Of a stretch of 64,000 nucleotides of DNA, positions 12,281-60,625 are shown in pieces. This DNA comes from Prevotella sp. (GTDB lineage Bacteria > Bacteroidota > Bacteroidia > Bacteroidales > Bacteroidaceae). The notes below the pieces were generated by a model. The model was not told where the DNA came from and made no database searches. It was given only the letters and a program-made list of their open reading frames with translations. Made by a program: the position numbers and the translations under genes. How positions within the stretch are numbered: the first letter of the stretch is position 1; each line of letters begins with the position of its first letter. Location of the stretch: positions 9,803-73,802 of the forward strand of contig JAFRRN010000002.1 in the NCBI GenBank assembly GCA_017428055.1, given 5' to 3'.

Positions 12281-12297
12281 TTATTTATTGTAAAGTT

Positions 12298-15779: not shown

Positions 15780-15787
15780 TATATTTG
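15780..15787 (+). promoter_or_regulatory. Bacteroidota -7 promoter box (TAnnTTTG)
   Basis: tatatttg. It overlaps the TTG start suggested by the ORF track at 15785, which argues for a downstream ATG start. Confidence 0.45.
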
Positions 15788-15814
15788 CGAAAGAAACGGA
15801 TTATTAACACTTTA

Positions 15815-16174: not shown

Positions 16175-16385
16175 GTAGGTAAGAAATGAATTTATACATA
16201 TATTCACATACACATATTACACAGACTCTGGTTCTACTGAAGTAGGTAAGTCTAACAGTTATAAATGTATAATAGGCAGAAAGGAAATGCGATGGTATGG
16301 AGATAGTGAATTCCTTGGGGTTGTCTATAATATACACGTTTTTGAGAGGTAATATTTTAACTTTAGTAATCGTTAAAAAAAGATT

Positions 16386-16946: not shown

Positions 16947-16962
16947 TAAATATCATGAGAAA

Positions 16963-17490: not shown

Positions 17491-17945
17491 AACGTTCTAT
17501 TTTTTTGTTTATATCATATTTCTTTTCGTTGGTTATTCAGGCAAATGTTGGGAACTTTGTCAGAAAGGAAGGTATCCTCTATCAGATTCAAGACGGTAGA
17601 GAGGTGAGGATTAACGAGCGTATAATAACCGTTAAGTTTAAAAACGAAAAATCAGTTTTGCCAAATGATTTTGTTGTCATTAGGAAAAATCAACTTGGTT
17701 ATATAGACTTGTCTGTTCTTGATGATACGGATGTATTAAAATACTATTCAAAACTGAAAGACAGTGGCTTGTTTGAAGTCGTGAATATGAATAATTATGG
17801 TGAAACATGTATGGTGCCAAATGACACTTACATAGGGAGTCAATGGCATTTGAATGCGATTCGCATGTTTGACGCATGGAATATCACAACAGGAAATGCG
17901 AACGTTAAAGTGGCAGTAATTGATACCGAGATTGATTGGCAATAA
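17487..17945 (+). pseudogene. Truncated S8 peptidase (prodomain plus Asp motif only)
   Basis: YIGSQWHLNAIRMFDAWNITTGNANVKVAVIDTEIDWQ-stop resembles the subtilase N-terminus up to the catalytic Asp box (VAVIDTGxD). The His and Ser regions are absent. The ORF ends exactly where composition shifts and the next gene starts. Confidence 0.6.
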
Positions 17946-43330: not shown

Positions 43331-43488
43331 TGCCGGGCCGATAGGTATCATCCAGGCATTTCAGGGGCGGCAAATATCGTGTCTTTGGGTGGATTCTAAT
43401 GCGAGCGTGAGCCACGTTCACTATCCGTGAATGCCGCCAATTAATGATTTTTTACTATACTTGTAGCCTATGATTCAACAAAAACCAT

Positions 43489-43496
43489 TAATTTTG
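43489..43496 (+). promoter_or_regulatory. Bacteroidota -7 promoter box (TAnnTTTG)
   Basis: taattttg, 34 nt upstream of ATG 43530 and downstream of the ORF-track start at 43470. Confidence 0.45.
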
Positions 43497-43529
43497 CAGC
43501 GATTATTAGCTTTTTTTGTTGTAGACAAG

Positions 43530-46500
43530 ATGAAGAGATGTATTATTTTGTTCGTGACGGCGATGGCATTCATCACCGTACACGCAGGGCCTGTGGATAA
43601 GCAAAAGGCATTTCAGGAGGCAGTGAAGTTTGTCCAAGGAGTCAACCCAACGATTCATTTTACCGAAAACCAAGTGCGCAAGATAGCCGGGAAATCAGCC
43701 GAAACAGCAGATACAGTCCAACCCTATTACGTTTTCAATGCAGATGAGGACAAAGGGTTTGTCATCGTTTCGGGCGATGACCGCACGGAACCCATCATAG
43801 GATATGCCGAGGAAGGGTCGTTTGATGCCGACAACATTCCAGGGGGATTGCAATTCCTGCTTGACTGCTTTGCCGAGGAGACACAATCAATGGAGTCGGA
43901 AGAGACGGCATCCAATACCGCGAGGAAGGTTGTAGCCCTCCCCCGTCGTACAGTGACGCCATTCAACCCGCGAAGATGGTACCAAAGTGGGCCATACAAC
44001 AACTTCTGTCCCAAGGACGGGGACAAGCGTTGCTCCACGGGTTGCCTTGCCACCGCCGTGGCGATTACCATCGGTTGCTTCAATTGGCCCGCGCAGACCA
44101 CGGCCATCCCTGCGTACACCACATCCACCAGGGGCTTCAAGATGCCTGAGTTGCCCCCGCTGACCATCGACTGGGAGCACATGCTTGACAGGTATGATGG
44201 CACCTATACCATGGAGGAGGCAAACGCCATTGCCAACTTCATGCTATACGTGGCACAAGGCATCAAGTCAGACTTCACGAAAGATGCCGTCAACGCATAC
44301 ATCTCGGCAGCCCTCAATGCCTACGTCAACTACTTCGACTTCGATCCGGGGATACGCCACATCAGTGCCGACGACTACGACACGGTAAACGACTTCATCG
44401 ACATCGTCTATGGCGAGATCTCACAGGGAAGGCCCGTCATGCTGGACGGCTTCTCCCTTGGCACACCCACGTCAAGCGCAGCCGGACATGCTTTCATCTG
44501 CGACGGCTACGAGCAAAACGACATGTTCCATATCGACTGGGGATGGACGGGATATTGCAATGGCTACTTCCGGCTGACGGTGCTTAACCCCTACAAGACC
44601 ACCCGCAACCGTAACTACACCAATAAACTCGGTGCGACCGTTGGCATCCAGCCCAATGGATGGAAGAGCAACGATGAGTTCTCATACGAGAAAGAGGACA
44701 TGGCATTGCAGCTCCTCAGCATCACACCAAGCGGTGACAATATCCGCGTGGCGTTGCAGAACGCCTACAACGAGAAGCTGGACTTCGACAACGCACTGGC
44801 TCTTTACGACGACAGCCTACAGTTCGTGCAGTTCATCTCATCGACAGACACGACCACCTTTAACCGTAACGGGTGGAATTACAAGACCTATTCCTCCATC
44901 TCATTTGAAGGTGTTGCCGATGGCACCTATAAAGTCATTCCCATGAGCCGCGTCAACGGACAAGAAGAATGGCACTTCGACCGATGCCTGGGCACTTATG
45001 CCTATTTGGAAGCCAACGTGGCGGGCGGGCAAGCCACTTACAAGGCGGTGGAAACCATCGTGGTGAACTCGTTTGAGGTGTTGGAGTCTGACCGCGGGAA
45101 CGGCATCGGTGCACCACAGACCGCTCGCCTCAATATCACCAACAATTCGTTTGACAAATTCGACAAGCACTATTATCTTGTCGCCAATAAGTCGCTAAAC
45201 ATGATCAATGGCCTGAGAATCCCCATGAACTCCACCGTGGACATCGACTTTGAGTTTGTGCCATACGTCGCGGGCGAGTATAAACTGGAAATTTGCAAGG
45301 ACTCCAACGGCGACTTCCCCATTGCCACCACCATGACAACGGCAAGCGACAATATCCATTATGGCGACGAAAGCAACAGCTTTAGGATGATTAAAGCCAC
45401 CATCCTCAACGACAACACGGAGGATAACGACGGCACCATAGGGTATGTCTACACAGATAAATACAAGGCGACGGTCAGTTTGACCAATGCCGATACGGTA
45501 AACACGTTCAACGACTATGTGCGCTTCTCCCTCTCACTGAGCAAGTCCACCGTGTCGGCCTGGGAGTCAACGGAACTCGTCCATGTCAGGCTCGCCCCCG
45601 GGGAGACCAAGACATTCACTTTCGAGTCTACGGAGATGTCGAAGAACAACAAGGACTACACTTTCAGGGTCATGACAAAATGGTATTCTTACGCCTCGAT
45701 GGATAACGTCGTGGACTGGTCGAAGCCCGGCACATACCAAATCACATACACGCCATACACCATAGCGCGCGCCCAGGGCTATCGCTATTGGACCGCTGGC
45801 GGCATGGCACACGGCCATGCGGCGGTGGCAGCCCCGTCGTTTGTGACGCCTGAGGATGTGGTTGCCATCAGCTTCGACACGCCCGACAGGGAATTATGGC
45901 CATTGGCATTCACCCCCAACAGCAACCCCAACACCCTCTATTATTTCAACGGAGAGAGCGACTACCCCAGCTTGGGGAATGTCATCAACGCGGGGAAAGC
46001 CAAGCGCATCAGCTTGACAGACGGCTTCCCCACCTTCGTTCCCGAATCGTTCATGGCAGACAGCGTGACCTACACCCGCACTTTCCGTCGGGGGTGCGAC
46101 GGGTTGGAAAACAAGTACAACTGGTCAACCATCATCCTGCCCTTTGACGTGCAGAGGGTTTCCATCCTCCCCGACAGCATTGATGTTGACTGGTTCCACA
46201 ATGCGGACGAGCTGGGGAAGGACTTCTGGCTATGCAGTTACCACGGGAAGGAGAACTACACGCTCCTCTTTGACTATTCTGATGAGTTCCTGGCAAACAC
46301 GCCTTATATCATCACCGTCTCCGATGAGAGAATTGATGGTCCCGGACTCGTGGGTAAGCCTATCGCGTTTAGTGCCACAGATGCGGAAGTCAAGGCAGGA
46401 ACGCTATTCATCGACACGAATGACTTTGACGTCGAAGGCAACTATTCGGGTGGAACAGTCACGGGCAGCCACCTCTACGTGATGGACGAGGAGGACTACG

Positions 46501-46772
46501 AGAAAGACTTTACCTATGTAGGCGATACGGTCACGGCAGTCCCGTTCCGCGCATACATCACTTCGGAGGTTTCCCCGAATGACAACAACAAGCAGCTTTT
46601 CATCAAGCTGCTGCATGAGAACCCGGAGATGACAGGGATTCAGCATGTGACGGAAATCCCATCCCCATCAAATAACGATGTATATGACATGATGGGAAGG
46701 AAAATGATTGGTAATTACATGCTCAATAAAGGTATATTTATCATCAATAAAAAGAAATACGTCGTTAAATAA
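43530..46772 (+). CDS. C10 (streptopain/SpeB-like) cysteine peptidase with Ig-like repeats, shared C-terminal domain and T9SS CTD
   Basis: Signal MKRCIILFVTAMAFITVHAG. Propeptide-like PYYVFNADEDKGFVIVSGDDRTEPIIGY. Catalytic Cys region RCSTGCLATAVAITIG and His region GHAFICDGYEQNDMFHIDWGWTGYCNGYF. C-terminus VYDMMGRKMIGNYMLNKGIFIINKKKYVVK. Confidence 0.9.
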   Translation: MKRCIILFVTAMAFITVHAGPVDKQKAFQEAVKFVQGVNPTIHFTENQVRKIAGKSAETADTVQPYYVFNADEDKGFVIVSGDDRTEPIIGYAEEGSFDADNIPGGLQFLLDCFAEETQSMESEETASNTARKVVALPRRTVTPFNPRRWYQSGPYNNFCPKDGDKRCSTGCLATAVAITIGCFNWPAQTTAIPAYTTSTRGFKMPELPPLTIDWEHMLDRYDGTYTMEEANAIANFMLYVAQGIKSDFTKDAVNAYISAALNAYVNYFDFDPGIRHISADDYDTVNDFIDIVYGEISQGRPVMLDGFSLGTPTSSAAGHAFICDGYEQNDMFHIDWGWTGYCNGYFRLTVLNPYKTTRNRNYTNKLGATVGIQPNGWKSNDEFSYEKEDMALQLLSITPSGDNIRVALQNAYNEKLDFDNALALYDDSLQFVQFISSTDTTTFNRNGWNYKTYSSISFEGVADGTYKVIPMSRVNGQEEWHFDRCLGTYAYLEANVAGGQATYKAVETIVVNSFEVLESDRGNGIGAPQTARLNITNNSFDKFDKHYYLVANKSLNMINGLRIPMNSTVDIDFEFVPYVAGEYKLEICKDSNGDFPIATTMTTASDNIHYGDESNSFRMIKATILNDNTEDNDGTIGYVYTDKYKATVSLTNADTVNTFNDYVRFSLSLSKSTVSAWESTELVHVRLAPGETKTFTFESTEMSKNNKDYTFRVMTKWYSYASMDNVVDWSKPGTYQITYTPYTIARAQGYRYWTAGGMAHGHAAVAAPSFVTPEDVVAISFDTPDRELWPLAFTPNSNPNTLYYFNGESDYPSLGNVINAGKAKRISLTDGFPTFVPESFMADSVTYTRTFRRGCDGLENKYNWSTIILPFDVQRVSILPDSIDVDWFHNADELGKDFWLCSYHGKENYTLLFDYSDEFLANTPYIITVSDERIDGPGLVGKPIAFSATDAEVKAGTLFIDTNDFDVEGNYSGGTVTGSHLYVMDEEDYEKDFTYVGDTVTAVPFRAYITSEVSPNDNNKQLFIKLLHENPEMTGIQHVTEIPSPSNNDVYDMMGRKMIGNYMLNKGIFIINKKKYVVK

Positions 46773-46783: not shown

Positions 46784-47764
46784 ATGCCTATCATTTCTAT
46801 TGTCATACCCGTTTATAATGTAGAAAAGTTATTGAGAAAATGTCTTGACAGCATATTGTCTCAAACTTTTACGGATTATGAATTGATTATCGTTGATGAT
46901 GGAAGTACAGACCAATCAGGTAAGATTTGTGACGAATATAAAGAAAAAGACCAACGAATTGTTAGCGTAATCCATCAAGAAAATCAAGGGTCAAGTGCTG
47001 CAAGAAACGCTGGATTGTCTTTAGCTAAAGGTAAATATTTGTCTTTTATTGATGCTGACGACTGGGTTGAGCCACAGTATCTTCAATCCATGTTAGATTG
47101 CGCTGAAAGGGAACATGCGGATTTGGTCATTTCATCCTTTATCAGGGAAAGCACTGACTATCCCGCTCTATACAATCGGAACGAGCCAAAAGACCTTAGT
47201 AAGAGAGCTGTCGTTTTAGGCTACTTTACCAATCTACACGCTGGATTGTGGAACAAGCTGGTCTTGCGTGAATTATTCGTCAAAAATGGAATTGCCTTCC
47301 CTCAGTATAATTACTATGAGGACATGGTGGTTTCCACAAAGATTACCATTGCCGCATCAAATATTGTCTACAGTGATACCCCGTTGTACCATTATGTGGT
47401 ACATGACTCGTCCATGACCCAATTACAAAACGCCGAGAAGCGACTTTCTTTATTTACTGAATGCTTAAACAACATCATGGGCATTCAGGAAATACCTTTC
47501 GTCAAATCTGACAAAGCCCTGTTAAGGGCATCGATGAATATAGTGAATTTTAATAAGAAGAAAATAATTAAGAATGTCTCTGATGAGCGAGTCATCCGTA
47601 GTGTCTTGGGGCAGTGCCGTGAGTCAATCACATTTAGTAATATTAGAAGCATCTCGGACTTATTGCTATATATCGCATCAAGGTTTACCATTTACAAACC
47701 CCTGAAATACTATTTAAAGAATCCGATTACACCTAAACTTTTTAATTATATAAAGCATACATAA
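46784..47764 (+). CDS. GT2-family glycosyltransferase
   Basis: ISIVIPVYNVEKLLRKCLDSILSQTFTDYELIIVDDGSTDQS...FIDADDW are GT-A fold motifs. 11-nt gap after the C10 peptidase gene. AT-rich. Confidence 0.9.
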   Translation: MPIISIVIPVYNVEKLLRKCLDSILSQTFTDYELIIVDDGSTDQSGKICDEYKEKDQRIVSVIHQENQGSSAARNAGLSLAKGKYLSFIDADDWVEPQYLQSMLDCAEREHADLVISSFIRESTDYPALYNRNEPKDLSKRAVVLGYFTNLHAGLWNKLVLRELFVKNGIAFPQYNYYEDMVVSTKITIAASNIVYSDTPLYHYVVHDSSMTQLQNAEKRLSLFTECLNNIMGIQEIPFVKSDKALLRASMNIVNFNKKKIIKNVSDERVIRSVLGQCRESITFSNIRSISDLLLYIASRFTIYKPLKYYLKNPITPKLFNYIKHT

Positions 47765-48688
47765 CAATATTCTCCTTTTCCAACTTGCCAAGGGACAATA
47801 CTGCCGACAGAATATGGGAACGGCATCCGTTGACAATCCTGCGAGGAGTTGGCAAAATTTCACCTTGTCACGTTTCCACATTTTCCTCATTATTGGAATG
47901 AGTGGGTACGGCTCATCCTCAATTAAATAATGGTGGGAACAAGCGAGATTAAAACATCTGATGCCAATTTCTGCACGTAAGACATGTTCGTCCATGTCCT
48001 CGCAGAACTTGCTTGTCAATGACCCCTCCTTTTCACATAATACATATAGGACACGGTCGTCTATATGAAGACTTTCTGCCAAACAACCTGATGATACCGA
48101 GAAGAAAAAGTCATTTGACCAACGTGTTTCATCGAACCTAAAACGATGGTTCTCGACAAATGACCTCTTGATCATCTTGGCAAAGGGAAATGGATAATAT
48201 GTGCGCGCAAAAACTTCCTTTTGAGGGTGATGATGCAATTGAACCCTGTAGTTTTGGTCACGATTTGACGTAATGGAGGGATTGTCAGACATCACGCTCT
48301 TATAATCAAAAAAGACAATATCGTCTTGCGCGTCAACGAAAGAATCTATCATGGACTCAAAGCCATCCACGAAAAAATCATCCGCATCTGCAAACAGTAG
48401 CCATTTTCCCTTGGCGTGGGCAAGCCCAACATTACGTGCCCTTCCCGCGCTTCCGCCCTTTTCCGTAGAATAGAATTCCAGGAAGGGACGAGACAACAAA
48501 GGATATTTTTCCAAGTATGTATCCGCATCTGGACTACAGTCATCTATTACAATCACTTGTATATCTTCCCGTATAGGAATGGAATTTAAACACCTCATCA
48601 AAAGAAGAGGGGTGTTATAATGGGGGATAATTACTGAAAAAGTGAAAGGATGTGCCATACTTCCAGAAGAGAAGGAATAAGAAGTCAA
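47714..48688 (-). CDS. GT2-family glycosyltransferase
   Basis: FSVIIPHYNTPLLLMRCLNSIPIREDIQVIVIDDCSPD...GSAGRARNVGLAHAKGKWLLFADADDFF. The start overlaps the stop of the upstream CotH-like gene by 4 nt. Confidence 0.85.
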   Translation of the reverse strand: MTSYSFSSGSMAHPFTFSVIIPHYNTPLLLMRCLNSIPIREDIQVIVIDDCSPDADTYLEKYPLLSRPFLEFYSTEKGGSAGRARNVGLAHAKGKWLLFADADDFFVDGFESMIDSFVDAQDDIVFFDYKSVMSDNPSITSNRDQNYRVQLHHHPQKEVFARTYYPFPFAKMIKRSFVENHRFRFDETRWSNDFFFSVSSGCLAESLHIDDRVLYVLCEKEGSLTSKFCEDMDEHVLRAEIGIRCFNLACSHHYLIEDEPYPLIPIMRKMWKRDKVKFCQLLAGLSTDAVPIFCRQYCPLASWKRRILLCMLYIIKKFRCNRIL

Positions 48689-51600
48689 TTGTTAGCAGAC
48701 AATATCATGCTGTTTATCATGATGACATCCGTGATGTTGATAAAGCCATCACAATTCACGTCTGCGACTTTCATGTTCAACAAATTGGTCTTGGATTGTA
48801 AGATGCAATTGAGAAGACAAACGCCATCGGTGATGTTGACAATCCCGTCTTCGTTGACATCCCCTATCAAATATTGGTTGACATCATAGCTTGACAATTG
48901 GTTTGTCTTGCCGATGGTGGGAACATCCATCAAATAGATGTTTTTCCCTCCATCAGGGTATCTGCCAACAGTGGAGTTTCCATCATGTACACAGTACTGC
49001 AAAGTATCAGACCAACTCCTGTCTGCTGCCGTGAGAGAGATAATGCCTCCGTCGCCATCTATCTTGAAAGAAGCATGAAGACCTTGGTCTGTTGTTGCCA
49101 GTTTGTCACACCACACGATGAGGTGGCCATGGGCGGGTATCACGGTGACAGCCATTGTCCCTTCCTTGGAAATCTTATACTTCGTGGGAACGCTTATGTT
49201 GTCAGAGAGATACATTCCTTCTACATCGATGGGACTGTTGGTCGAATTATATAATTCCACCCAGTCATTCTTCTTGTAATACTCGTTGACATAAATGGAA
49301 TTGTTTCCGCTTACTTCGTTTATCATGACGGGCTTGGTGGATGACATGGCCATTTCGGCATTTGACAACTCCTCATAGCAAGCGGTGAGGTGGCAGTTGG
49401 TGTCAGGCAAGGTAATCTCTGTTTCCGTGGAATAGTAGACGGCAGACTCATCGTCCAAAGTGCCAATCAGTCGTGCATCCCAATAGATATCGCTCGATGA
49501 AGCACTTGAATTATGCACCTCAACGGCGATGACATTGCTACCTTTGTGGAAAAGGGAGCTTGGCAACACAATGACAGTGTTGTCGGGATTGTCGTGGGCA
49601 TAGGATTTTGAATAAGTGCTATACGCCACAGTTCCTGTTGTCATGAGATAACGCCCGGCTTCCGTGCCGTTGACATAGACGATGAATCCATCATCCGCCT
49701 TGCAATCCAAGACAAAAAGGGAATGGTCGTCGGGCTCTTTGTCTATCTGAAAGGACTTCCTGAAATAATAAGTCGGTATTTTGCTGCTGGCATTACTGCC
49801 GTATGAAATGGTGGTGCCAATACTACTGAACCCATAGCCCAATGGTGTCTTCCCCGTACTCCAGCTACTGCTGTTGTACGAAGAGGAAGTCCAACTCTTT
49901 CCATCTAATGAGCCTTTGTCGTAATATGACCAAGAGTCGCCAAAGCTGAAGATGACACGTTCTTTTGCCATGCCATCCTTCCAACCCACGAACTTATATC
50001 CTGCGGGACAAACGGCTGAAACCGTGACAGAAGGGAAAAGGCGGCCATTGAATTGGCCTGTTGGGATCTTCTGTTCATTCAACATGATGTCCGCTCCTTG
50101 GATATTGCTTCCTAAAACCGCGTGGTAAGAGGCTGTGTTTGTAAGACCCATAGGGGAGAAACTTTTCAGATAATATGTCATCAAGGGCATTCGGTTAGCA
50201 AAGGCCTCTTTCATCTCTTCCGCAGTCTTGTCGGGTGACTTCCCTTCGAGACTTAACGCAGGTCTTGTGATGGCGGTGATGGAATCAATGATGGCGTTGC
50301 ATCGCTCTGGGAGAAACACGCTACCTCCCATGATGCAATAGGTATCGATAAATCTTTTCCTAAACTCATCATTGTTGAGGAGGTTGCTGAAGATGGAAAT
50401 AAACTTCTGCTCAACACCACTTATCACTTGCCTGCTCATCATTTTGTTAAAGACATCATCGATACTGAAAGCCAAGTCTACATCATAGGAAATGATGCGG
50501 AACTTTCCATTTTGGCTGTGCCTAAAACCTTTCAAGTTGTTCAAAGGCCAGTCGTTAACGCCTAAATACAGTTCCTCAGCCATGTAGTTGGCATATTCGT
50601 CAACATCCAAGATATTCTTGATTTCCTTATAGGTGTCAGGGTCTGCGGCATCAGAGGACAATGAATACAACTGCTCAAACTTGTCTGGTGTGCCACATTG
50701 CTGGAGGTATGTGGAACTCCCTATCTCAAACTGGTCAATCTCATCATCATCCCATCCATAATTCGCGTAAACATAATGTTTGTTGTTGGGCTCGCGGATG
50801 TTAAGCATCCCAATATATTGCCCATTGATAAACTCATGGCAGGGCTGGGCACTTTGGCAATCGATGTCTATGCCCGAAGACATGACCATGGTATGTATGG
50901 CCATGTCTTTCAGCCTGCAATTCACGTCATTTCCTCCGTTCCGTACTTGTAAGGTGCGATTGCGGATATATGGTTTTGAGGAAAAGAAAGGATATGGCAA
51001 ATTCTTGTTGCCTCCCAATTCCTTGCTCCCTTTCAGCTTCAACGACCGTGGTGTCCAAGCCCTGCTGTAGCCTCCTGCAATTTTCAAGTTGACATCCTGG
51101 TTTAACACCATGTCGTTATCGATGATGTAAGAGAAATTGCCAGGGCGTTCCCAATCCATGTTCCAATTGCAGGGAGTGGTCTGTCCATTGCCAGCCACAC
51201 CATTTACGCCTTTCACATAAATTCCAATCGAGTCATCATAAAGAAAAACCGGGTCAACAACGATGGAGACAATAGGAAGCGTATAGTCCTTGTCGTTGTA
51301 AAGGTATGAGCGGGTTATAGTCCTGGAAGCTAAGTAGTTGTCCGAAAAGAGGCGAAATCGTAGAACGGTGGACTTGGTTAAAGAGAATTTTCCACTTGCC
51401 GCGGTCTTGCCATTTGTCAACGTGGGTAGTGTCCCGTCTGTAGTGTAGCGCAAAACCGTGCCGGAGGGGATGCCAACGTTGATGTATAGTGTACCCGTGA
51501 ACAATTGTGACGGTTGGTCTACAATAGGCGAGGGAAGTTGGCTGTTTGCATAGGTTGCCAACGAATTGGCCTTTCCGGGTGTTGGGGTAGAAGTGTAATT

Positions 51601-52080
51601 CCATACGCTCCCTCCGTCTGTTGTTCTTGCATAACTGGCTCTTTCTATACCCTCTGGGTATGTTTGGCTGGCAATCAATTGTCCATTTGCATCACTAATA
51701 TATACCGTTCCACCATCAACATCAAGTTTGAATGGTACACTATTGGAGCTCAACATGTCTTCATCAAACCAAACCAGTAAATACCCATGAGCGGGGATTT
51801 TTCCCATGGATGACGGGGCTTGCCAAAGTTTCAAGTTCTGGATGTCGTTACTGAAAAATAAGCCGCCAACATCTATGGCACTACTTGTTGGATTATATAA
51901 TTCTATCCATCCGTCAAAGTTCCAAGAAGGACTTATCCACTCATCAACATTAGACACCATCACTTCATTGATGACAATATCTGAGGACGTACTATTTTCA
52001 TTGGCATGGCAATCCATTGCCCTCAATAGTAAAAAGAAGAGATATACGAAAACCGTATATTTAATAAACTTATCATTCAT
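48685..52080 (-). CDS. CotH-like kinase-fold protein with two lamin-tail domains and C-terminal dockerin
   Basis: LTD motifs VINEVMVSNVDEWISP...GWIELYNPTSSAIDVGGLFFSND and MINEVSGNNSIYVNEYYKKNDWVELYNSTNSPIDVEGMYLSDN. CotH core NLKIAGGYSRAWTPRSLKLKGSKELGG...LQVRNGGND...EFINGQYIGMLNIREP. C-terminus GDVNEDGIVNITDGVCLLNCIL...ADVNCDGFINITDVIMINSMILSANN. Confidence 0.88.
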   Translation of the reverse strand: MNDKFIKYTVFVYLFFLLLRAMDCHANENSTSSDIVINEVMVSNVDEWISPSWNFDGWIELYNPTSSAIDVGGLFFSNDIQNLKLWQAPSSMGKIPAHGYLLVWFDEDMLSSNSVPFKLDVDGGTVYISDANGQLIASQTYPEGIERASYARTTDGGSVWNYTSTPTPGKANSLATYANSQLPSPIVDQPSQLFTGTLYINVGIPSGTVLRYTTDGTLPTLTNGKTAASGKFSLTKSTVLRFRLFSDNYLASRTITRSYLYNDKDYTLPIVSIVVDPVFLYDDSIGIYVKGVNGVAGNGQTTPCNWNMDWERPGNFSYIIDNDMVLNQDVNLKIAGGYSRAWTPRSLKLKGSKELGGNKNLPYPFFSSKPYIRNRTLQVRNGGNDVNCRLKDMAIHTMVMSSGIDIDCQSAQPCHEFINGQYIGMLNIREPNNKHYVYANYGWDDDEIDQFEIGSSTYLQQCGTPDKFEQLYSLSSDAADPDTYKEIKNILDVDEYANYMAEELYLGVNDWPLNNLKGFRHSQNGKFRIISYDVDLAFSIDDVFNKMMSRQVISGVEQKFISIFSNLLNNDEFRKRFIDTYCIMGGSVFLPERCNAIIDSITAITRPALSLEGKSPDKTAEEMKEAFANRMPLMTYYLKSFSPMGLTNTASYHAVLGSNIQGADIMLNEQKIPTGQFNGRLFPSVTVSAVCPAGYKFVGWKDGMAKERVIFSFGDSWSYYDKGSLDGKSWTSSSYNSSSWSTGKTPLGYGFSSIGTTISYGSNASSKIPTYYFRKSFQIDKEPDDHSLFVLDCKADDGFIVYVNGTEAGRYLMTTGTVAYSTYSKSYAHDNPDNTVIVLPSSLFHKGSNVIAVEVHNSSASSSDIYWDARLIGTLDDESAVYYSTETEITLPDTNCHLTACYEELSNAEMAMSSTKPVMINEVSGNNSIYVNEYYKKNDWVELYNSTNSPIDVEGMYLSDNISVPTKYKISKEGTMAVTVIPAHGHLIVWCDKLATTDQGLHASFKIDGDGGIISLTAADRSWSDTLQYCVHDGNSTVGRYPDGGKNIYLMDVPTIGKTNQLSSYDVNQYLIGDVNEDGIVNITDGVCLLNCILQSKTNLLNMKVADVNCDGFINITDVIMINSMILSANN

Positions 52081-52089
52081 ATAATATGA

Positions 52090-55000
52090 TTACTTCATAA
52101 ATTTGCAGACAACTCGCTCGTTGTTACTATCTGTCGCTACCGCCACATAAAAACCAGAAGGTAATCCTGAAACGTCTATCAAGGAAACGCCACGATGGAT
52201 ATTCGTAGATACAGACATCATGTTTTGCCCATCTACCGTATAGACTAACACACGGGCAAAGTCGGTGTCTTCATCCTTTAAGATGAGTGTCCCGTCGCCA
52301 TATCTGATACGGAAGCCATTGGATGATGCGATGGTTGCCTTGTGTATGTCAAGGGTCTCTTGGTCAGTCTTTTGAGAATAAGATGTCATGAGGTTGCGCT
52401 TTTCAATGGTAGGCATACTGAACGCATACACCTCATTCCCTCCGTCTGGGTATCGCCCGACAGTGGTGTTCCCATCATGAGTACCATAATATAAGGTATC
52501 AACCCAACTGTTGTCTGCGGCAACGAGTGCAACAAGTCCTCCATCACCATCAATCTTAAAGGAGGCGTGGATGGCAGAGTTGGTTGTTTCCAACTTATCA
52601 CACCACACAAGCAGGTATCCATGCGGAGCAATCTTGGTGTTGGCACTTGTGTGCCCTTTCGTGATTTGGTATTTGGTGGGTTTGTCGAGATTGTCCGTCA
52701 AATACATCCCTTCCACATCAATCACCTCATCGGTGGTGTTATACAGTTCCACCCAATCACTTTTCTTCCCATACTCATTGACATACACGGAATTGCTGCC
52801 ACTCACCTCATTGATACGGACAGGGCTGATATTATCGTCGGTACGTTCAGATGGCGTCATGGGTTTATATGAGGCGGTAAGCCGGAAATTACCACTTGGC
52901 ATGTCTATTTCCGCATCCGTAGAATAATAATCCACATCCTGCTGAGATACCGTCCCCGTTAATTGCGCATCCCAATAAATATCGGATGAAGAGGCACTGC
53001 AATTATGCACTTCCGCCGCAATGACATTTTCGCCTTTTCTCAATAAGCTTGCGGGGATGGATATGGAACCCTCAAAAGGCACATCATCAGCATACGTCGA
53101 TGAATAGGTGTTGAAAGAGACCGTTCCCGAAGGCATGTTGTATCTCCCCACCTCCGTGCCATTCACGTAGAACACGAAACCATCGTCAACGGCATAGTTG
53201 AATGTAAAGCTTGCATTGCTGGCAGGTTTCTCTTGGAGCGTGAAAGTCTTTCGGTAATATGACGTGGGATATTTATTGCGTGAGTCATTACCGTATGAGA
53301 TGGTGGTTGCCACGTCTAACTTAAAACCAAGCGGTGCCCTCCCACTACTCCAATTAGTGGTGGGGTAATCGACGGAATACCATTGTTGACCGTCAAGTGA
53401 GCCCTTGTCATAATAATACCAACTCTCACCCTTGTCGAACACCACACTTTGATGAGCCGTTCCCGACAGCCAACCTTGGAAGGTGTATCCAGCAGGGGCA
53501 ACGGCTTTCAACTTCACTGGCGCAAAGAGGTTTCCCTTGAATGACCCCGTTGGGATGTCGATGCCATTTATCTCAATCCGCGCACCATCTGCATCACTAC
53601 CCAGTTGGGCTGATTGTGCCGATGTCTGCGACAAGTCAAACGCATAATAATTCCTCAAGGCATTGATCATGGTGTTATTCCTACCGCTCAAATTGTTCTT
53701 CAAGTTATTCCCCATGCTTGTCACATTGCCCGAGCGTCCCTCCAAAGCCATCGCTGGGGAGCATATCGCCACCAACGAGTCAATCACCTCATTGCAACGA
53801 CTCGGCTCGAAGACGCTTCCGCCTATGATGCAAAAGGTATCAATAAACTTCTTCTTAAACTCATTGTTTTGTAACAGTTGACGGAACAACCTCACCAACG
53901 TGTTGTCCGTGGTGATACGTGTATTGCTGGGATAGAGTAAGTCAAACGTATAGTTGTATTCCATCCCAAAGAACCATGAGAACATTCCACTGCCATTGGA
54001 GAAAGACCCATCGAGGTCGAACAAGACAAAGCGGTACTTCCCACCATCACGGTAACGGAATGCTTTCACGTTGTTGCGAATCCAGTCTGAACCACCCAGA
54101 TAGAATCCCACCGCCATGTATGCCGCATACTCGTCTATATCCAGCAATTGCTTTATCTCCTCGTACGTCTCGGTATTGGCGGCATCGGCTGATAATTGTA
54201 ACAAATATTGATAAGACTCATCCGTACCACACTTCTGCACATAGAAAGAGTCTGGGGATATTTCAAATAGGTCAATCTCGTCATCGTCCCATCCATAGTT
54301 GGCATAGACAAAATGCTTGTTGTTCGGCTCGCGGACATTCAACATGCCCACATAATCACCATTGATAAACTCATGGGCGGGACGGAAACTTTGTCCATCA
54401 ATGTCGATACCCGAGGTAAGGACGATGCTTTGTAGAGCGCCATCTTTCAGTCGGTCATTGTTATTGTTGCCCCCATTCCTTATCTGTAAGGTGCGGTTGC
54501 GGATGTAAGGCTTGTTTGCAAAGAATGGATAATCCAAGTTCTTACTGCCCCCCAATTCCTTATTTCCCTTGAGCTTGAATGAATGGGGAGTCCACGCACG
54601 ACTCCATCCGCCACACATCTCAAGGTTGACATCTTGGTTGAGAACCATCTCGCCATCGGGCATGATATATGAGAAATTGACGGGACGCTCCCAATCCATG
54701 TTCCAGTTGCACTTGGAAGATTGCCCGTTGCCGGGCCTTCCATTCACGCCTCTCACATACACACCTATCGAGTCATCGTAAAGGAAGTCAGGGTCGGTTA
54801 TCACCGACACGACAGGCAACATGTAATCCTGATAACGATAGATATAAGAGCGCGATGTCACGGGTGACGGTAAATAGTCATCTGCGAACAAGCGGAAACG
54901 ATAACATGTGGTATATGGCACATCAAATTGTCCCGTACTCGATGTCTCGCCATTGGTCAACGTAGGCAACGTGCCATCAGTGGTATAGCGCAAGGTGCAT

Positions 55001-56457
55001 CCTGCGGGTATTTGTACGTTGACTATCAATGAGCCATTAAACAATTGGGACGGCTGGTCTACGATTGGCGCACCGAGTTGCATCTGCGCAAAGGTAGAGG
55101 TATTATTACTTGACCCGGGCGTGGGGTTGGATGTAAAGGACCACTCGCCGCCACCATCCGTCGTGCGGGCATAACTCACACGCTCCATGCCAGCCGGGTA
55201 TTCCTGTTGGGTAATCAGTTTTCCGTATGAATCACTAATGTAGAGCGTTCCCCCGTCCACATCCAATTTGAACATGGCATTCTTGCGGTTCAACGTACCA
55301 CTATCAAACCAAATCACACGATAGCCATGCGCGGGAATGGTGCCCATGTTATATGGCATTTGCCATAATTTCAAATTGCCCGGCGAGTCGCTTAGGTACA
55401 TGTTGTTCAAGCCTACCGTTTGGTCTGTAGGGTTATACAACTCCACCCATCCGTCAAAATTGAAGGCGGGACTTATCCACTCGTCCACATTAGATGCCAT
55501 GATCTCATTGATGATGAGCGACTCCGACGTGGCAGGGTTGCTGGTAACACGCACCACGACATTCGCCACCTTGTTGGAACCGTCCGTCGTTCTCGCCGTG
55601 ATGATGGCACTGCCTTGTTCATGGGCCGTAACCATACCATCGTCACTCACCGAGGCGATGCTGGAATTACTGCTGGCCCATGACAACTTCTTATAAGTGA
55701 CATTCTCCGGTTTGATGGAGGCACTCAATTGAAACGACTCCCCTATCAACAATGTCATCAAGGATGGAGTGACGCTAAGCCCTGTGGCAAGCACCACCTC
55801 GCCATAATATTCTATCTTGAAGTTATCAAACAAGCACCAGTTGTTGCTGACGAAATTATCGTTTTTCAAGCCAATAACCAAATCACCCCCATCGAAGTCA
55901 AACTCCAATTCGTTCCAATAATAACCATCCTTGAAAGCACGAGTGCCGCTCTCCATGTTATTGGGGAAATAGACATACGTCTGATTCCACCAGCCACCTG
56001 AGCCATATCCCCAGCAACCACCTTCCAAGTTCTCGGTGAACGACTGTGAATAGACACTCGCCAAAGGCTTCTCGAAGTAAGTCTTATTGCCAGCATAAAG
56101 ATACCCCGTAATGTCCTCCGTGCCATTCAGGTAATCCTGATACCCATTCTGATTGTCCTTGCAACGGTAATACGACTGCACCGACAACCGATAATGTCCG
56201 GCTGTCAGGTTCATCAAGTTTTGGTGAATGTCAAACGTGGCATTCCAAAACTCCATCGCATCCACACGATTGTTGCAACTGCCATGTTGCCACGAGAACG
56301 TCCACCCTTGGTTGGTGTTCCCGTCAAATGTGTAATTGGTAATCAGTTGGTCGGTCAAGTCAATCCAGTCCTTGGCAGCATAGCTTTCCATAGGGACACA
56401 CCATGCTCCTATTGCCAGCAGGAAAACCTGGGATAAAACGTGTCGGAGAACATTCAT
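52090..56457 (-). CDS. CotH-like kinase-fold protein with CBM-like N-domain, Big_2, two lamin-tail domains and T9SS CTD
   Basis: Paralog of 48685-52080 (about 55-65 percent aa identity by eye over the shared region). Extra N-terminal domain and Big_2 (LSVTPSLMTLLIGESFQLSASIKPENVTYKKLSWASSNSSIASVSDDGMVTAHEQGSAIITA). C-terminus VLVYTVDGQNMMSVSTNIHRGVSLIDVSGLPSGFYVAVATDSNNERVVCKFMK. Confidence 0.88.
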   Translation of the reverse strand: MNVLRHVLSQVFLLAIGAWCVPMESYAAKDWIDLTDQLITNYTFDGNTNQGWTFSWQHGSCNNRVDAMEFWNATFDIHQNLMNLTAGHYRLSVQSYYRCKDNQNGYQDYLNGTEDITGYLYAGNKTYFEKPLASVYSQSFTENLEGGCWGYGSGGWWNQTYVYFPNNMESGTRAFKDGYYWNELEFDFDGGDLVIGLKNDNFVSNNWCLFDNFKIEYYGEVVLATGLSVTPSLMTLLIGESFQLSASIKPENVTYKKLSWASSNSSIASVSDDGMVTAHEQGSAIITARTTDGSNKVANVVVRVTSNPATSESLIINEIMASNVDEWISPAFNFDGWVELYNPTDQTVGLNNMYLSDSPGNLKLWQMPYNMGTIPAHGYRVIWFDSGTLNRKNAMFKLDVDGGTLYISDSYGKLITQQEYPAGMERVSYARTTDGGGEWSFTSNPTPGSSNNTSTFAQMQLGAPIVDQPSQLFNGSLIVNVQIPAGCTLRYTTDGTLPTLTNGETSSTGQFDVPYTTCYRFRLFADDYLPSPVTSRSYIYRYQDYMLPVVSVITDPDFLYDDSIGVYVRGVNGRPGNGQSSKCNWNMDWERPVNFSYIMPDGEMVLNQDVNLEMCGGWSRAWTPHSFKLKGNKELGGSKNLDYPFFANKPYIRNRTLQIRNGGNNNNDRLKDGALQSIVLTSGIDIDGQSFRPAHEFINGDYVGMLNVREPNNKHFVYANYGWDDDEIDLFEISPDSFYVQKCGTDESYQYLLQLSADAANTETYEEIKQLLDIDEYAAYMAVGFYLGGSDWIRNNVKAFRYRDGGKYRFVLFDLDGSFSNGSGMFSWFFGMEYNYTFDLLYPSNTRITTDNTLVRLFRQLLQNNEFKKKFIDTFCIIGGSVFEPSRCNEVIDSLVAICSPAMALEGRSGNVTSMGNNLKNNLSGRNNTMINALRNYYAFDLSQTSAQSAQLGSDADGARIEINGIDIPTGSFKGNLFAPVKLKAVAPAGYTFQGWLSGTAHQSVVFDKGESWYYYDKGSLDGQQWYSVDYPTTNWSSGRAPLGFKLDVATTISYGNDSRNKYPTSYYRKTFTLQEKPASNASFTFNYAVDDGFVFYVNGTEVGRYNMPSGTVSFNTYSSTYADDVPFEGSISIPASLLRKGENVIAAEVHNCSASSSDIYWDAQLTGTVSQQDVDYYSTDAEIDMPSGNFRLTASYKPMTPSERTDDNISPVRINEVSGSNSVYVNEYGKKSDWVELYNTTDEVIDVEGMYLTDNLDKPTKYQITKGHTSANTKIAPHGYLLVWCDKLETTNSAIHASFKIDGDGGLVALVAADNSWVDTLYYGTHDGNTTVGRYPDGGNEVYAFSMPTIEKRNLMTSYSQKTDQETLDIHKATIASSNGFRIRYGDGTLILKDEDTDFARVLVYTVDGQNMMSVSTNIHRGVSLIDVSGLPSGFYVAVATDSNNERVVCKFMK

Positions 56458-56477: not shown

Positions 56478-59400
56478 TTATATAGTATACTCTTGCCAAC
56501 TCTTGATTTGGATGTCTTCCATCCGCATAGCACAGAATGCCTCTATAAATGCCTTGGCAAGCCTCACGTTGGTCATCAGCGGGATGTTATGGTCAATGGC
56601 GGCGCGGCGGATGCGATAGCCATTGGTCAACTCGCGCTTGGTATGGTTCTTGGGAACATTGATGATGAGTTCCAACTTGTGCGACGAAATCAGGTCCATC
56701 ACGTTATTGGGACCCTCCTCGTCCGGCCAAGCCACCGCCGTTGCCTTCACGCCATTGTCGTTGAAGAATTTGGCGGTGCCCCTTGTCGCGTAGATGTCAT
56801 ATCCTTTCTCTGCCAACTCACGCACAGGCTCGAGCAAGTCCACCTTCCCTTTGGCTCCTCCCGAGGAAATCAAGATGCTCTTCTTCGGCAGACGGTAGCC
56901 CGTGGCGATGAGGGCGTTTAGCAACGCCTCGTTCAGGTCATCGCCCAAGCAACCCACTTCTCCCGTACTGCTCATGTCAACACCCAAAACGGGGTCGGCA
57001 TCCTGCAATCGGGCAAAAGAGAACTGGGAAGCCTTCACGCCGATGCGGTCGATGTCAAACTCTCCCTTGTCTGGCTTTTGGTAAGGCACGTCAAGCATGA
57101 TCTTGGTAGCCGTCTCAATGAAGTTGGTCTTCAAGATCTTGCTGACGAAGGGGAACGAGCGGCTCGCCCTCAAGTTGCATTCTATCACTTTCACCTCGCG
57201 GTTCTTGGCAAGATACTGGATGTTGAATGGTCCAGAGATGTTCAGTTCCTTGGCAATCTTATGGGAAATCTTCTTAATCTGTCGGATGGTAGAGAAATAA
57301 ATATGTTGCGCGGGAAACACCATCGTGGCATCGCCAGAGTGTACGCCGGCATACTCCACATGCTCGGAGATGGCATATTCAACGATCTCGCCCTTGTCAG
57401 CAACGGCATCGAACTCTATCTCCTTGGTCTCCGTCATGAACTTAGACACCACCACAGGATAGTCTTTCGACACCTCCGTCGCCATGGCGAGGAAGCGTTC
57501 CAACTCCTCATTGTCGTAACAGACATTCATTGCCGCGCCACTCAATACGTAAGACGGGCGCACCAATACGGGGAATCCCACCTCGCTGACAAACTCCTTG
57601 ATGTCATCCAACGATGTCAAGGCACGCCACGCTGGCTGGTCTACGCCCAGTTTATCAAGCATGGCAGAGAACTTGTCGCGGTTTTCGGCACGGTCAATAT
57701 CCACGGGCGACGTGCCAAGTATAGGTACACCCTGTCGATATAGCTTCATCGCAAGGTTATTGGGTATCTGCCCACCCACGGAGACAATCACGCCACGCGG
57801 TTGCTCCAAGTCGATGACATCCAACACACGCTCCATCGACAACTCGTCGAAATAGAGCCTGTCGCACATGTCATAGTCGGTGGAGACGGTCTCAGGGTTG
57901 TAATTAATCATGATGGACTTATACCCCAGCTTGCGAGCCGTATTGATGGCATTCACCGAACACCAGTCAAACTCCACAGACGATCCGATGCGGTAAGCAC
58001 CCGAACCGAGTACCACCACGCTCTTCTCATTCTTATAATACTCGATATCGTGCAATGAGGCCGACTTGTCATAATGGTAAGTGAAATACAGGTAATTGGT
58101 CAACTCAGGATGCTCGCTTGCCACGGTATTGATTCGTTTCACGGCTGGCACCACACCACGCTGCTTGCGATAGCGGCGCACGGCGAGGTTCTCGTTATAC
58201 ATGTTACCCGCTGCGGGTTTTAACACAAACCGTGCTATCTGGAAGTCGGAGAAGCCAGCGGCTTTCACCTCCATCAGGAACTCGTCTGGTATGTCCTCCA
58301 ACTTGTCAAAAGCCTGTAGTTTGCACTTCAGGTCAACAATTCTCTTCAACCGCTCGATAAACCACTTGTCAATTCGCGTCAGTTCCTCTATCCGCTCGAT
58401 GGAATAACCATCTTCCAACGCCTGGGCGATGGCAAAGATGCGCAAGTCCGTGGGATTCTCCAAGGCATCGTCGAGATTCTCAAAGCGCGTGTGGTCATTG
58501 CCCACAAAGCCATGCATCCCCTGCCCAATCATGCGCAAGCCTTTCTGGATCATCTCCTCAAAGCTACGGCCTATCGACATGATCTCTCCCACCGACTTCA
58601 TGCTGGAGCCGATCTTGCGGGAGACACCCGCGAACTTGGTCAAGTCCCAACGTGGGATCTTGCAAATCATATAGTCAAGGCTCGGCGCAACGTAGGCGGA
58701 ATTGGGCGTTCCCATCTCGCCAATCTGGTCGAGCGTATATCCCAACGCTATCTTGGCGGCAACGAAAGCCAACGGATAACCCGTAGCCTTTGATGCCAAC
58801 GCCGAGGAACGACTCAATCGGGCGTTGATCTCGATGATGCGGTAATCATTGGTCGTGGCATTGAAAGCAAACTGGATGTTACACTCGCCCACGATATCCA
58901 GATGCTTCACACATTGGATAGACAGTTCCTGCAACATCTTCACTTGCTCTTCGGTGAGCGAGCAGGTGGGGGCTACCACGATGGACTCGCCTGTATGGAT
59001 GCCCAACGGGTCGAAATTCTCCATCGACGCCACGGTGAAACAGTGGTCGTTGGCATCGCGTATCACCTCAAACTCTATCTCTTTCCAGCCCTTCAACGAC
59101 TCCTCCACCAAGATCTGGGGGGCAAACGTGAAGGCACTCTCGGCAACCTCCTTAAACGTTTTCTCGTCGGGACAGATGCCCGAGCCCAAGCCGCCAAGGG
59201 CGTAAGCGGAGCGAATCATGATGGGGAAACCTATCTCACGGGCAGCCTTGAGCGCATCATCCATGTTCTCCACGGCATGGCTCACGGGGGTCTTCAGCCC
59301 CACCTCGTCAAGCTTGCGCACAAAGAGGTCGCGGTCCTCTGTGTTCATGATAGCCTCTACCGACGTGCCTAACACCTCCACGCCATACTCTTTCAATATG

Positions 59401-59711
59401 CCGTTGGTATACAGTTCCGTACCACAATTCAAGGCAGTCTGGCCGCCAAACGCCAAGAGGATGCCATCGGGACGCTCCTTCTTGATAATCTCCGTCACGA
59501 AATACGGCGTGACGGGTTGGAAATATACCTTGTCGGCAATGCCTTCGGATGTCTGGATGGTCGCGATATTGGGATTGACCAGCACCGAGGAGATGCCTTC
59601 CTCGCGCAACGCCTTCAACGCCTGGGAACCGGAATAGTCAAATTCACCCGCCTGTCCAATCTTCAAGGCACCACTGCCCAATACCAATACCTTTGAGAGT
59701 TTCTTGTTCAT
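56478..59711 (-). CDS. carB: Carbamoyl-phosphate synthase large subunit
   Basis: MNKKLSKVLVLGSGALKIGQAGEFDYSGSQALKALREEGI... Duplicated ATP-grasp halves (second VVVLGSGAYRIGSSVEFDWC) and a C-terminal MGS-like domain. ~1077 aa from the internal ATG. Confidence 0.97.
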   Translation of the reverse strand: MNKKLSKVLVLGSGALKIGQAGEFDYSGSQALKALREEGISSVLVNPNIATIQTSEGIADKVYFQPVTPYFVTEIIKKERPDGILLAFGGQTALNCGTELYTNGILKEYGVEVLGTSVEAIMNTEDRDLFVRKLDEVGLKTPVSHAVENMDDALKAAREIGFPIMIRSAYALGGLGSGICPDEKTFKEVAESAFTFAPQILVEESLKGWKEIEFEVIRDANDHCFTVASMENFDPLGIHTGESIVVAPTCSLTEEQVKMLQELSIQCVKHLDIVGECNIQFAFNATTNDYRIIEINARLSRSSALASKATGYPLAFVAAKIALGYTLDQIGEMGTPNSAYVAPSLDYMICKIPRWDLTKFAGVSRKIGSSMKSVGEIMSIGRSFEEMIQKGLRMIGQGMHGFVGNDHTRFENLDDALENPTDLRIFAIAQALEDGYSIERIEELTRIDKWFIERLKRIVDLKCKLQAFDKLEDIPDEFLMEVKAAGFSDFQIARFVLKPAAGNMYNENLAVRRYRKQRGVVPAVKRINTVASEHPELTNYLYFTYHYDKSASLHDIEYYKNEKSVVVLGSGAYRIGSSVEFDWCSVNAINTARKLGYKSIMINYNPETVSTDYDMCDRLYFDELSMERVLDVIDLEQPRGVIVSVGGQIPNNLAMKLYRQGVPILGTSPVDIDRAENRDKFSAMLDKLGVDQPAWRALTSLDDIKEFVSEVGFPVLVRPSYVLSGAAMNVCYDNEELERFLAMATEVSKDYPVVVSKFMTETKEIEFDAVADKGEIVEYAISEHVEYAGVHSGDATMVFPAQHIYFSTIRQIKKISHKIAKELNISGPFNIQYLAKNREVKVIECNLRASRSFPFVSKILKTNFIETATKIMLDVPYQKPDKGEFDIDRIGVKASQFSFARLQDADPVLGVDMSSTGEVGCLGDDLNEALLNALIATGYRLPKKSILISSGGAKGKVDLLEPVRELAEKGYDIYATRGTAKFFNDNGVKATAVAWPDEEGPNNVMDLISSHKLELIINVPKNHTKRELTNGYRIRRAAIDHNIPLMTNVRLAKAFIEAFCAMRMEDIQIKSWQEYTI

Positions 59712-60315: not shown

Positions 60316-60566
60316 TTAACATTTTTTGGGCGGCATCCGTCGGCGGCGGATGCCACATCCGCCACCCATAAACGTGGCATCTATCAGCCGCGAAGGTATC
60401 AGAAATAATGTTAAAATGCCACTTTCGCGGGTGATAAATGATAGCCTCATTTCGTAAATGGTTGGTATCCAACGGGTTGCAAAATGCACGAAAAAACGGC
60501 CTAAGGTTGGGGTTGCTTGCAAATAACGCAACCACGGAGGCCCATTTTGTGATAAAAAATTGACAA
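60316..60566 (-). repeat. Intergenic repeat element copy 2 (inverted relative to copy 1)
   Basis: The reverse complement of 60415-60566 aligns with 19041-19200. 60316-60327 ttaacatttttt and 60403-60414 aaataatgttaa flank the ggcatccg(7 nt)cggatgcc palindrome. Confidence 0.7.
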
Positions 60567-60594
60567 TTCCGTGGGCAGTCCCAAAAAGAATGAC

Positions 60595-60602
60595 TACCTT
60601 TG
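60595..60602 (+). promoter_or_regulatory. Bacteroidota -7 promoter box (TAnnTTTG)
   Basis: tacctttg, 24 nt upstream of ATG 60626 and immediately after the repeat element. Confidence 0.45.
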
Positions 60603-60625
60603 CAGTGACATTGAATCAAGAATAC

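Follow-up and report, generated by a model that had tools for sequence, protein, structure and literature searches.

A tandem pair of CotH-type kinase-like paralogs in a ruminant-gut Prevotella, one ending in a predicted type IX secretion tail and the other in a dockerin

Why should a bacterium keep, side by side, two genes whose proteins share most of their domains and end in unrelated tails? The question is raised by a locus in a 64-kb window, that is, the whole stretch of DNA analyzed here, from Prevotella sp., a ruminant-gut Prevotella. On the minus strand of the window, open reading frames (ORFs) and their translations give, in this order, carB, encoding the carbamoyl-phosphate synthase large subunit (56478-59711), paralog B (52090-56457, 1455 aa), paralog A (48685-52080, 1131 aa) and a gene for a GT2 glycosyltransferase. 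A sequence-only reading of the same DNA had described A and B as adjacent CotH-like paralogs with lamin-tail domains (LTDs) and different C-terminal tags, and in this it was right: both ORFs are present on the minus strand at these positions, the tail of A is a type I dockerin, and that of B is probably a type A C-terminal domain (CTD) of the type IX secretion system (T9SS). We consider it rather probable that A and B are old tandem paralogs, B being the T9SS form and A a short dockerin form that is docked elsewhere.

Both proteins would belong to a large Prevotellaceae/Bacteroidaceae family of secreted multi-domain proteins of the CotH-type atypical kinase-like fold, built on a shared core of LTD, Ig-like domain, CotH, sugar-binding jelly roll of the glycoside hydrolase family 2 (GH2) type and second LTD. 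B would represent the standard form of this family, and its CTD would send it via the T9SS to the cell surface or into the medium. In the short form A, the CTD would have been exchanged, just after the second LTD, for a type I dockerin drawn from the lineage's own dockerin pool. This dockerin would most likely tether A, in a Ca-dependent manner, to a cohesin-like receptor, and as the likeliest consequence A would carry out the same chemistry as B in another complex or at another location. Both copies retain their phosphotransfer site and are held by selection, and they would probably be transcribed together with carB as one unit; their substrate might be an extracellular or envelope protein or a glycan.

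In BLASTP, A and B were identical at 592 of 1053 aligned positions (56%, E = 0). The alignment spans A30-1065 and B309-1360 and stops exactly at ...QLSSY in A and ...LMTSY in B, which fixes the swap point at ...SSY / ...TSY. Beyond it, the tails of A (residues 1066-1131, 66 residues) and B (residues 1361-1455, 95 residues) gave no alignment at E ≤ 100; at this threshold the C-termini thus show no hidden homology. Up to the swap point, both proteins contain two LTDs (PF00932, 85-88 bits), a CHB_HEX_C-like Ig domain and a CotH domain that scores far above the PF08757 cutoff of 23.8 bits (A 88.2, B 90.5), as well as weak Pfam matches to GH2/beta-galactosidase sugar-binding domains across the SWSYYDKGSLDG...DDGF region. 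A (48685-52080, minus strand) hence reads signal peptide, LTD, Ig-like domain, CotH, sugar-binding jelly roll, LTD and type I dockerin.

B (52090-56457, minus strand) begins with a signal peptide, a jelly roll resembling carbohydrate-binding modules (CBMs) and a Big_2 domain, continues with LTD, Ig-like domain and CotH, and ends with the GH2-type jelly roll, an LTD and the predicted T9SS type A CTD. The core of LTD, CotH, beta-sandwich and LTD that had been proposed from the sequence was found in both proteins, and the beta-sandwich corresponds to the GH2 sugar-binding domains among the Foldseek matches of the A model. The additional N-terminal module of B had been overlooked. It makes up about 300 extra residues compared with A (jelly roll and Big_2 at residues 28-298, 55564-56376, minus strand); its model has a predicted local distance difference test score (pLDDT) of 95, and its Foldseek matches are Big_2 and CBM51/MAM-like folds. 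To speak of the same enzyme with two tags goes too far, given 56% identity only, a whole N-terminal module that differs and an old duplication.

Across the family, this N-terminal module occurs in zero, one, two or more copies. Proteins of about 1165 aa have none, those of about 1445 aa have one and those of about 1715 aa have two (P0007-P0120; L069-L071, L075), and family ORFs of 2100-2440 aa, in which repeats were left uncounted, suggest further copies.

The dockerin of A occupies residues 1071-1127 (48700-48870, minus strand) and matches Dockerin_1 (PF00404) with 36.6 bits against a cutoff of 22.9 over residues 1073-1127 of 1131. It also matches solved dockerins in the PDB with E = 3e-6 to 3e-3, those of Clostridium thermocellum at 3e-6. 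Its two Ca-binding loops, DVNEDGIVNITD and DVNCDGFINITD, fit the pattern D-x-N-x-D-G-x-x-N-x-x-D, each with a helix behind it, and all six dockerin-clade orthologs retain the two of them with a single Gly-to-Glu change, found in P0005.

For B, the region behind the swap point (residues 1361-1455, 52093-52377, minus strand) comprises a linker and the CTD, whose hidden Markov model (HMM) match covers residues 1390-1455 in a tail that reads ...GFYVAVATDSNNERVVCKFMK. TIGR04183 gave 23.9 bits against a cutoff of 23.0, the match running to the last residue, 1455, and PF18962 gave 17.4 bits, under its cutoff of 27. The CTD call is supported by a tail motif, ...GFYVA.A.....G..V.CKF.K, common to about 80 family members, and many B homologs carry precomputed PF18962 matches. 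The window contains several CTD-type proteins in all, among them the product of 11021-12280 (PF18962, 29.5 bits) and a C10 peptidase with such a tail.

At the other end, the N-terminus of B (MNVLRHVLSQVFLLAIGAWCVPMESYA, followed by AK) looks by eye like a Sec signal peptide. A and its dockerin-clade orthologs also have signal peptides of the Sec/SPI type, with no conserved lipobox Cys. A lipoprotein anchor for A was rejected: P0003-P0006 lack the Cys that A of the window and P0002 have, and a canonical lipobox is missing. That two tags route the proteins, as the sequence-only reading had put it, is not supported, since a dockerin is a docking module rather than a secretion signal and A has only its Sec signal peptide.

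To our knowledge, a substrate or role for CotH-like proteins is known only from Bacillus spores. The full-length AlphaFold2 model of A (pLDDT 84, predicted TM-score 0.80) has as its two best Foldseek matches in the PDB the Bacillus cereus CotH structures 5JDA and 5JD9 (E = 2e-9, target-normalized TM 0.63-0.65), followed by GH2 sugar-binding domains. We judged the dockerin part of this model (pLDDT about 40) unreliable and left it unused; its low score reflects an alignment that consists, in this part, mostly of CTD sequences. A full-length profile against PDB sequences missed CotH, and a domain-only query finds 5JD9, weakly. In the domain-only phmmer alignment, LGVND510WPLNN515...SYD533VD535 of A pairs with D224, N229, D247 and D249 of 5JD9. 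Taken alone this alignment is weak (E = 0.19), but residue spacing and fold agree with it.

The catalytic loop and metal-binding motif of A, D510-x4-N515 and D533-x-D535, thus lie within residues 510-535 (50476-50553, minus strand), and B has the same catalytic residues in ...SDWIRNN...FDLD. The CotH residues of B. cereus, shifted by four, correspond to D228 and D251 of Bacillus subtilis, where the mutants D228Q and D251A are inactive (PMC7821199). Throughout the family, N515, D533, D535, K348 and K350 are invariant (89 of 89 members), and position 510 is Asp in 85 and Glu in four of them. These four are the dockerin-clade members P0003-P0006; A of the window (50551-50553) and P0002 retain the Asp, as do the 80 CTD forms and the three dockerin forms from Bacteroidaceae that were examined. 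With the catalytic Asp, the metal-binding Asn and the DFG-like Asp present in both paralogs, A and B are probably active phosphotransferases.

How common is such a protein, and how often was its tail exchanged? One search returned more than 3400 relatives of A at E ≤ 1e-10; named ones come from Prevotella and Xylanibacter, and NCBI labels them 'CotH kinase family protein'. We compared 80 loci of a representative-genome set, from which 8 kb were fetched per side and in which the window's own species is absent (best identity 58%). All 80 have a single CotH copy within 8 kb on each side, with a CTD in 77, and an additional dockerin paralog occurs only in the carB-linked clade. The A-type dockerin form comprises six clusters, P0001-P0006, of 64-100% identity, and the order carB, B with CTD, A with dockerin recurs in all five other dockerin-clade lineages with a visible flank.

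A second dockerin-tailed lineage was found in uncultured Bacteroidaceae metagenome-assembled genomes (MAGs; L074, L078, L083). These proteins keep the N-terminal module and carry a different dockerin subtype (...GDVNGDGEITVADITAVADIIM...), and their contigs, which are short, show a single CotH copy each. They sit elsewhere in the tree, and their junction is at the same place, just past ...PTIAK.N.YTDY. From this it follows, on the sequences compared, that the exchange of CTD for dockerin took place in at least two independent events, the domain boundary being the same in both lineages.

The pair itself is not young. A is 56-58% identical to B and up to 59% identical to distant Prevotella members, and a neighbor-joining tree, which may carry long-branch effects, places the dockerin clade as a monophyletic group outside the B clade. 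A recent tandem duplication, in which A should be closer to B than to distant relatives, was rejected on these two grounds, and the comparison points to a duplication that is probably old. In one species pair, carB is 95%, B 78% and A 66% identical, so both CotH proteins appear to evolve fast between species, A faster than B.

Between strains, A shows 16 synonymous and two non-synonymous differences and B 32 and 17, corresponding to ratios of non-synonymous to synonymous polymorphism (pN/pS) of 0.03 and 0.14, with 0.02 for carB, all of which rest on small counts. The whole block is contiguous in four independent gut metagenomes, a sheep-gut one among them, and the contigs of these four have no reported insertion or deletion within A or B. 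These patterns indicate that both copies are under purifying selection and that the pair is real and maintained. A and B differ in one further respect, as A diverges faster between species, yet is the more constrained copy within species (0.03 versus 0.14). In one metagenome, a population (X2) carries a 10-nt insertion, TATTATATTA, at 56470, within the 20-nt spacer between carB and B.

Dockerins are no rarity in this DNA. The window encodes four dockerin proteins, A included; the other three, all with C-terminal type I dockerins, are a protein at 14-1969 (plus strand), a polysaccharide lyase family 11 (PL11) rhamnogalacturonan lyase at 2128-5697 (plus strand) and a BspA-type leucine-rich repeat (LRR) protein at 30478-31281 (minus strand). 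The first two have in common a module of about 520 aa at the C-terminal end (59% identity) as well as a near-identical dockerin, and the dockerin proteins of the window lie near C10 peptidase and LRR genes. In a dockerin-profile search, the closest named relatives of the dockerin of A were Prevotella and Muribaculaceae proteins. Matches were mostly short fragments, and the two examined belong to an LRR protein and a C10 peptidase whose C-termini had been split off. One metagenome contig (L092) has a dockerin fragment downstream of a C10 peptidase, and the tail type seems variable in that family too. Rumen Prevotella dockerins, including a C10 peptidase-dockerin protein, have been reported before (PMC6487960). 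To call the arrangement unusual therefore goes too far: there are four dockerin tails within 64 kb, and rumen Prevotella (PMC6487960) and Cthe_0239 (PMC6083626) provide precedents. With four dockerin proteins and no cohesin in the scanned ORFs of the 64 kb, we do not regard the locus as a cellulosome.

Several observations weigh against the proposal that B leaves through the T9SS and A is docked elsewhere by its dockerin. The CTD scores of B are borderline. A, with a Sec-type signal peptide alone as far as its sequence tells, has no known route across the outer membrane, and for dockerins of diderm Bacteroidota we know of neither a partner nor an outer-membrane route. A supply of ATP outside the cell is a problem for any secreted kinase. 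Glu replaces the catalytic Asp510 in four of six A orthologs. The orthologs of the PL11 protein are mostly untagged proteins of about 710 aa, and because most of them carry no C-terminal tag, the dockerin-tagged proteins apparently need not derive from T9SS cargo. A cohesin was not matched by Pfam in any scanned ORF of the 64-kb window, nor was anything cohesin-like among the top 50 Foldseek matches of the N-terminal module of B. In a rumen survey, Bacteroidetes contributed 1.7% of cohesins, and none of their contigs had both modules (PMC6487960). The N-terminal module of B as the cohesin for A was also rejected as unsupported, given its Big_2 and CBM51/MAM-like folds, and it is widespread in species without a dockerin copy.

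Prevotellaceae and related Bacteroidales might run a dockerin-based docking system alongside the T9SS, with a receptor that is not recognizable as a cohesin and perhaps an unknown export route, a wider claim that we regard as doubtful. The tandem pair, with the same core and two tails, is a natural matched control for finding receptor and route. With it one could also ask whether one phosphotransfer activity is placed at two sites on the envelope or on plant fiber.

Where, then, does A act, and do its neighbors give a hint? Gene order around the pair is carB, B, a variable segment, a C10 peptidase, APH and GH43. The C10 (streptopain-like) peptidase, which combines an I69 inhibitor domain with a T9SS-like C-terminus (43470-46772, plus strand), forms the conserved edge of this segment. 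The segment consists, in the window, L088 and L090, of A, a co-directional and a convergent GT2 gene; in L001-L003 and L089, of A and one convergent GT2 gene of a third type; and in L004, of A, a GT4 gene, an aminotransferase, a sugar transferase and a GT2 gene. L006 has a sugar dehydrogenase and the GT2 pair of the window without A, and in L010, from the RUG036 MAG, the segment is empty. Because its content differs between loci, A appears to sit in a strain-variable glycosyltransferase islet.

RUG036 shares 98% DNA identity with L001 over carB and B and is without the 4.5 kb that hold A and GT2 (8143-12710 of L001 against 11458-11614 of L010); downstream, identity falls to 88%. This looks like a strain-level presence/absence polymorphism, with an artefact of MAG assembly being possible.

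The sequence-only reading had further coupled the pair to a GT2 gene, and here it does not hold up. The co-directional GT2 gene follows A in three of six related lineages (the window, L088 and L090) and not in L001-L004 or L089, and L006 has this GT2 pair without A. Comparative synteny hence rules out an obligatory coupling of A and GT2; a looser tie of A to envelope glycan synthesis is possible on this gene content.

This gene, on the minus strand and recognized as ORF and by Pfam, extends from 47714 to either an ATG at 48658 or a TTG at 48688, and a supposed 4-nt overlap with the stop of A requires the TTG. The ATG (MAHPFTFSVIIPHYN) leaves a gap of 26 nt behind A and gives a product of 314 aa. 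Because the GT2 orthologs in L088 and L090 are 311-316 aa long and start 38 nt past A, the ATG is probably the true start and the translational overlap an artefact of taking the longest ORF. The convergent GT2 gene (46784-47764, plus strand) encodes a protein only 34% identical to the co-directional one; the 3' ends of the two overlap by 51 nt (47714-47764), and a comparable overlap of 45 nt exists in L090.

The tight spacing that had been claimed was otherwise found as described, with 20 nt between the carB stop and the B start and 9 nt between the B stop and the A start, close enough for co-transcription. For carB, the start is most likely the ATG at 59711, not the TTG at 59768, as the resulting 1077 aa and the start agree with gene calls in L001, L086 and L088. 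Around the cluster, a Bacteroidota-type -7 motif (TAnnTTTG) is present just once, at 59751, a short way upstream of carB. A sigma-70 promoter scan is unsuited to Bacteroidota and was used for terminators only; terminator-like sites in the cluster were not enriched over shuffled sequence. Transcription of carB, B and A as one unit from the carB promoter is plausible because the gaps are tight (20, 9 and at most 26 nt), terminators are not in excess and the lone motif lies upstream of carB.

Glycosyltransferase neighbors would fit an A that is exported by Sec only and stays in the periplasm, with envelope or glycan intermediates as its target, or that is packed into outer-membrane vesicles, and that uses its dockerin for Ca-dependent oligomerization or as a tether, with B at the surface; the pair would then represent one activity in two compartments. 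The SPI-type signal peptides of A and its orthologs, lacking CTD and conserved lipobox, are in line with this, as are the glycosyltransferases of the variable sugar-gene islet, the joint absence of A and a GT2 from RUG036, which is 98% identical over carB and B, and the orthologs of the PL11-dockerin protein, which are mostly without a surface tag. However, all solved dockerins matched by A belong to secreted cellulosomal enzymes, and A retains, as the surface form does, the sugar-binding jelly roll and LTDs. Linkage to GT2 varies between lineages, and ATP is absent from the periplasm too. We regard a periplasmic A as unlikely.

The Asp-to-Glu change could alternatively mean that A is moving away from catalysis to serve as an adhesin, ligand binder or pseudokinase scaffold, with B staying the enzyme. 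Fungal CotH invasins, which bind host receptors, offer a model for this. The change is confined to four dockerin-clade orthologs, P0003-P0006, and is seen in no CTD form, and in the same species pair A orthologs are 66% identical compared with 78% for B. Yet the Asp is kept in A of the window and in P0002, Asn515, Asp533 and Asp535 are invariant in 89 of 89 members, the pN/pS of A is 0.03, and the replacement by Glu is conservative and may preserve catalysis. On these grounds we consider a non-catalytic A quite improbable.

Even less probable, in our view, is a dockerin of A that targets foreign rumen cohesins, for example Ruminococcus scaffoldins, which would place a Prevotella protein in foreign cellulosomes. 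The scanned ORFs of the window hold no cohesin of their own, lateral transfer of dockerins from Firmicutes to Bacteroidetes has been proposed (PMC6487960), and the dockerin set of the window (CotH/LTD, PL11 and LRR) is paralleled in the C. thermocellum cellulosome by Cthe_0239, by Cthe_0246, which joins PL11 and dockerin, and by LRR among the module types (PMC6083626). In opposition to this, cohesin-dockerin binding is generally species-specific (PMC6487960), and the nearest named relatives of the dockerin are from Prevotella and Muribaculaceae. That A is a decaying or unexpressed duplicate with a chance dockerin-like tail, as its absence from the near-identical strain RUG036 might suggest, is effectively refuted by its pN/pS of 0.03, by the lack of reported insertions or deletions in A and B across four metagenomes, and by a dockerin that scores above the curated cutoff and keeps both Ca loops across orthologs of 64-100% identity.

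We return to A and B as differently tailed old paralogs and ask what they resemble. The cellulosome of C. thermocellum lists Cthe_0239 (LTD, LTD, Fn3, CotH and dockerin) and CseP/Cthe_0044 (CotH and dockerin) (PMC6083626). Like A, these join CotH, and in Cthe_0239 also LTDs, to a type I dockerin in a secreted protein of a plant-fiber-degrading anaerobe, Clostridium (Acetivibrio) thermocellum. That organism is Gram-positive and has cognate cohesins on its scaffoldins, whereas A comes from a diderm and no cohesin was found in the scanned ORFs of the window. The domain order of A differs as well, with an added sugar-binding jelly roll and the second LTD placed C-terminally, and its core, which is 56% identical to B, belongs to the Prevotella lineage and is no clostridial import.

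With CotH of Bacillus (5JD9/5JDA; B. subtilis), A shares the atypical kinase fold and the catalytic Asp/Asn/Asp-x-Asp. The Bacillus protein is a single domain of about 360 aa that acts in the mother cell on the substrates CotB and CotG. A and B, at about 14-16% sequence identity to it, are in contrast 1100-1450 aa long and predicted to be Sec-exported, and they carry LTDs, modules resembling CBMs and tails for sorting or docking.

B looks like an ordinary T9SS-tagged Prevotella/Xylanibacter CotH member of the same architecture, with CTD and 50-60% identity to its named comparators from Xylanibacter brevis ATCC 19188 and Prevotella sp. E13-17. A has its closest parallel in tail type in rumen Prevotella dockerin proteins (Bensoussan et al. 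2017, PMC6487960), secreted proteins with a C-terminal type I dockerin; unlike for A and B, that set includes no CotH/LTD example and no paired CTD paralog. Anaerobic gut fungi of the Neocallimastigomycota are reported as a further case in which CotH and dockerin recur in herbivore-gut fiber degraders. The fungal dockerins have a fold unrelated to that of the type I dockerin of A.

The literature searched contained no paper on the function of Bacteroidota LTD-CotH proteins, and the remark that the secreted versions lack an established function therefore stands. Each component of the locus is already known, namely the CTD form, common in Prevotellaceae, the combination of LTD, CotH and dockerin in the cellulosome, and Prevotella dockerins. 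What appears to be new, and seemingly undescribed, is the matched tandem pair and the recurrent swap from CTD to dockerin in a diderm. Secreted CotH-like proteins are abundant in cellulosomes, gut fungi and Prevotella, where more than 3400 relatives were counted. Not a new kind of system in itself, the locus unites the question of their role with that of Bacteroidota dockerins in a tractable form. Experimental handles are provided by two paralogs under selection, natural strains without the dockerin copy and natural Asp-to-Glu variants.

Elsewhere in the window, a low-GC stretch at about 10000-18000 (36-43% compared with about 50% elsewhere) may be an acquired island. In it lie genes for a T9SS-tailed Peptidase_S74 protein (11021-12280) and a C25 peptidase (12298-14628), alongside several small ORFs without a Pfam match. 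On the plus strand at 60560-63547, just upstream of the region of the carB promoter, lies a gene for a restriction-modification enzyme of the MmeI type (type IIL), which is complete and has all five MmeI Pfam domains.

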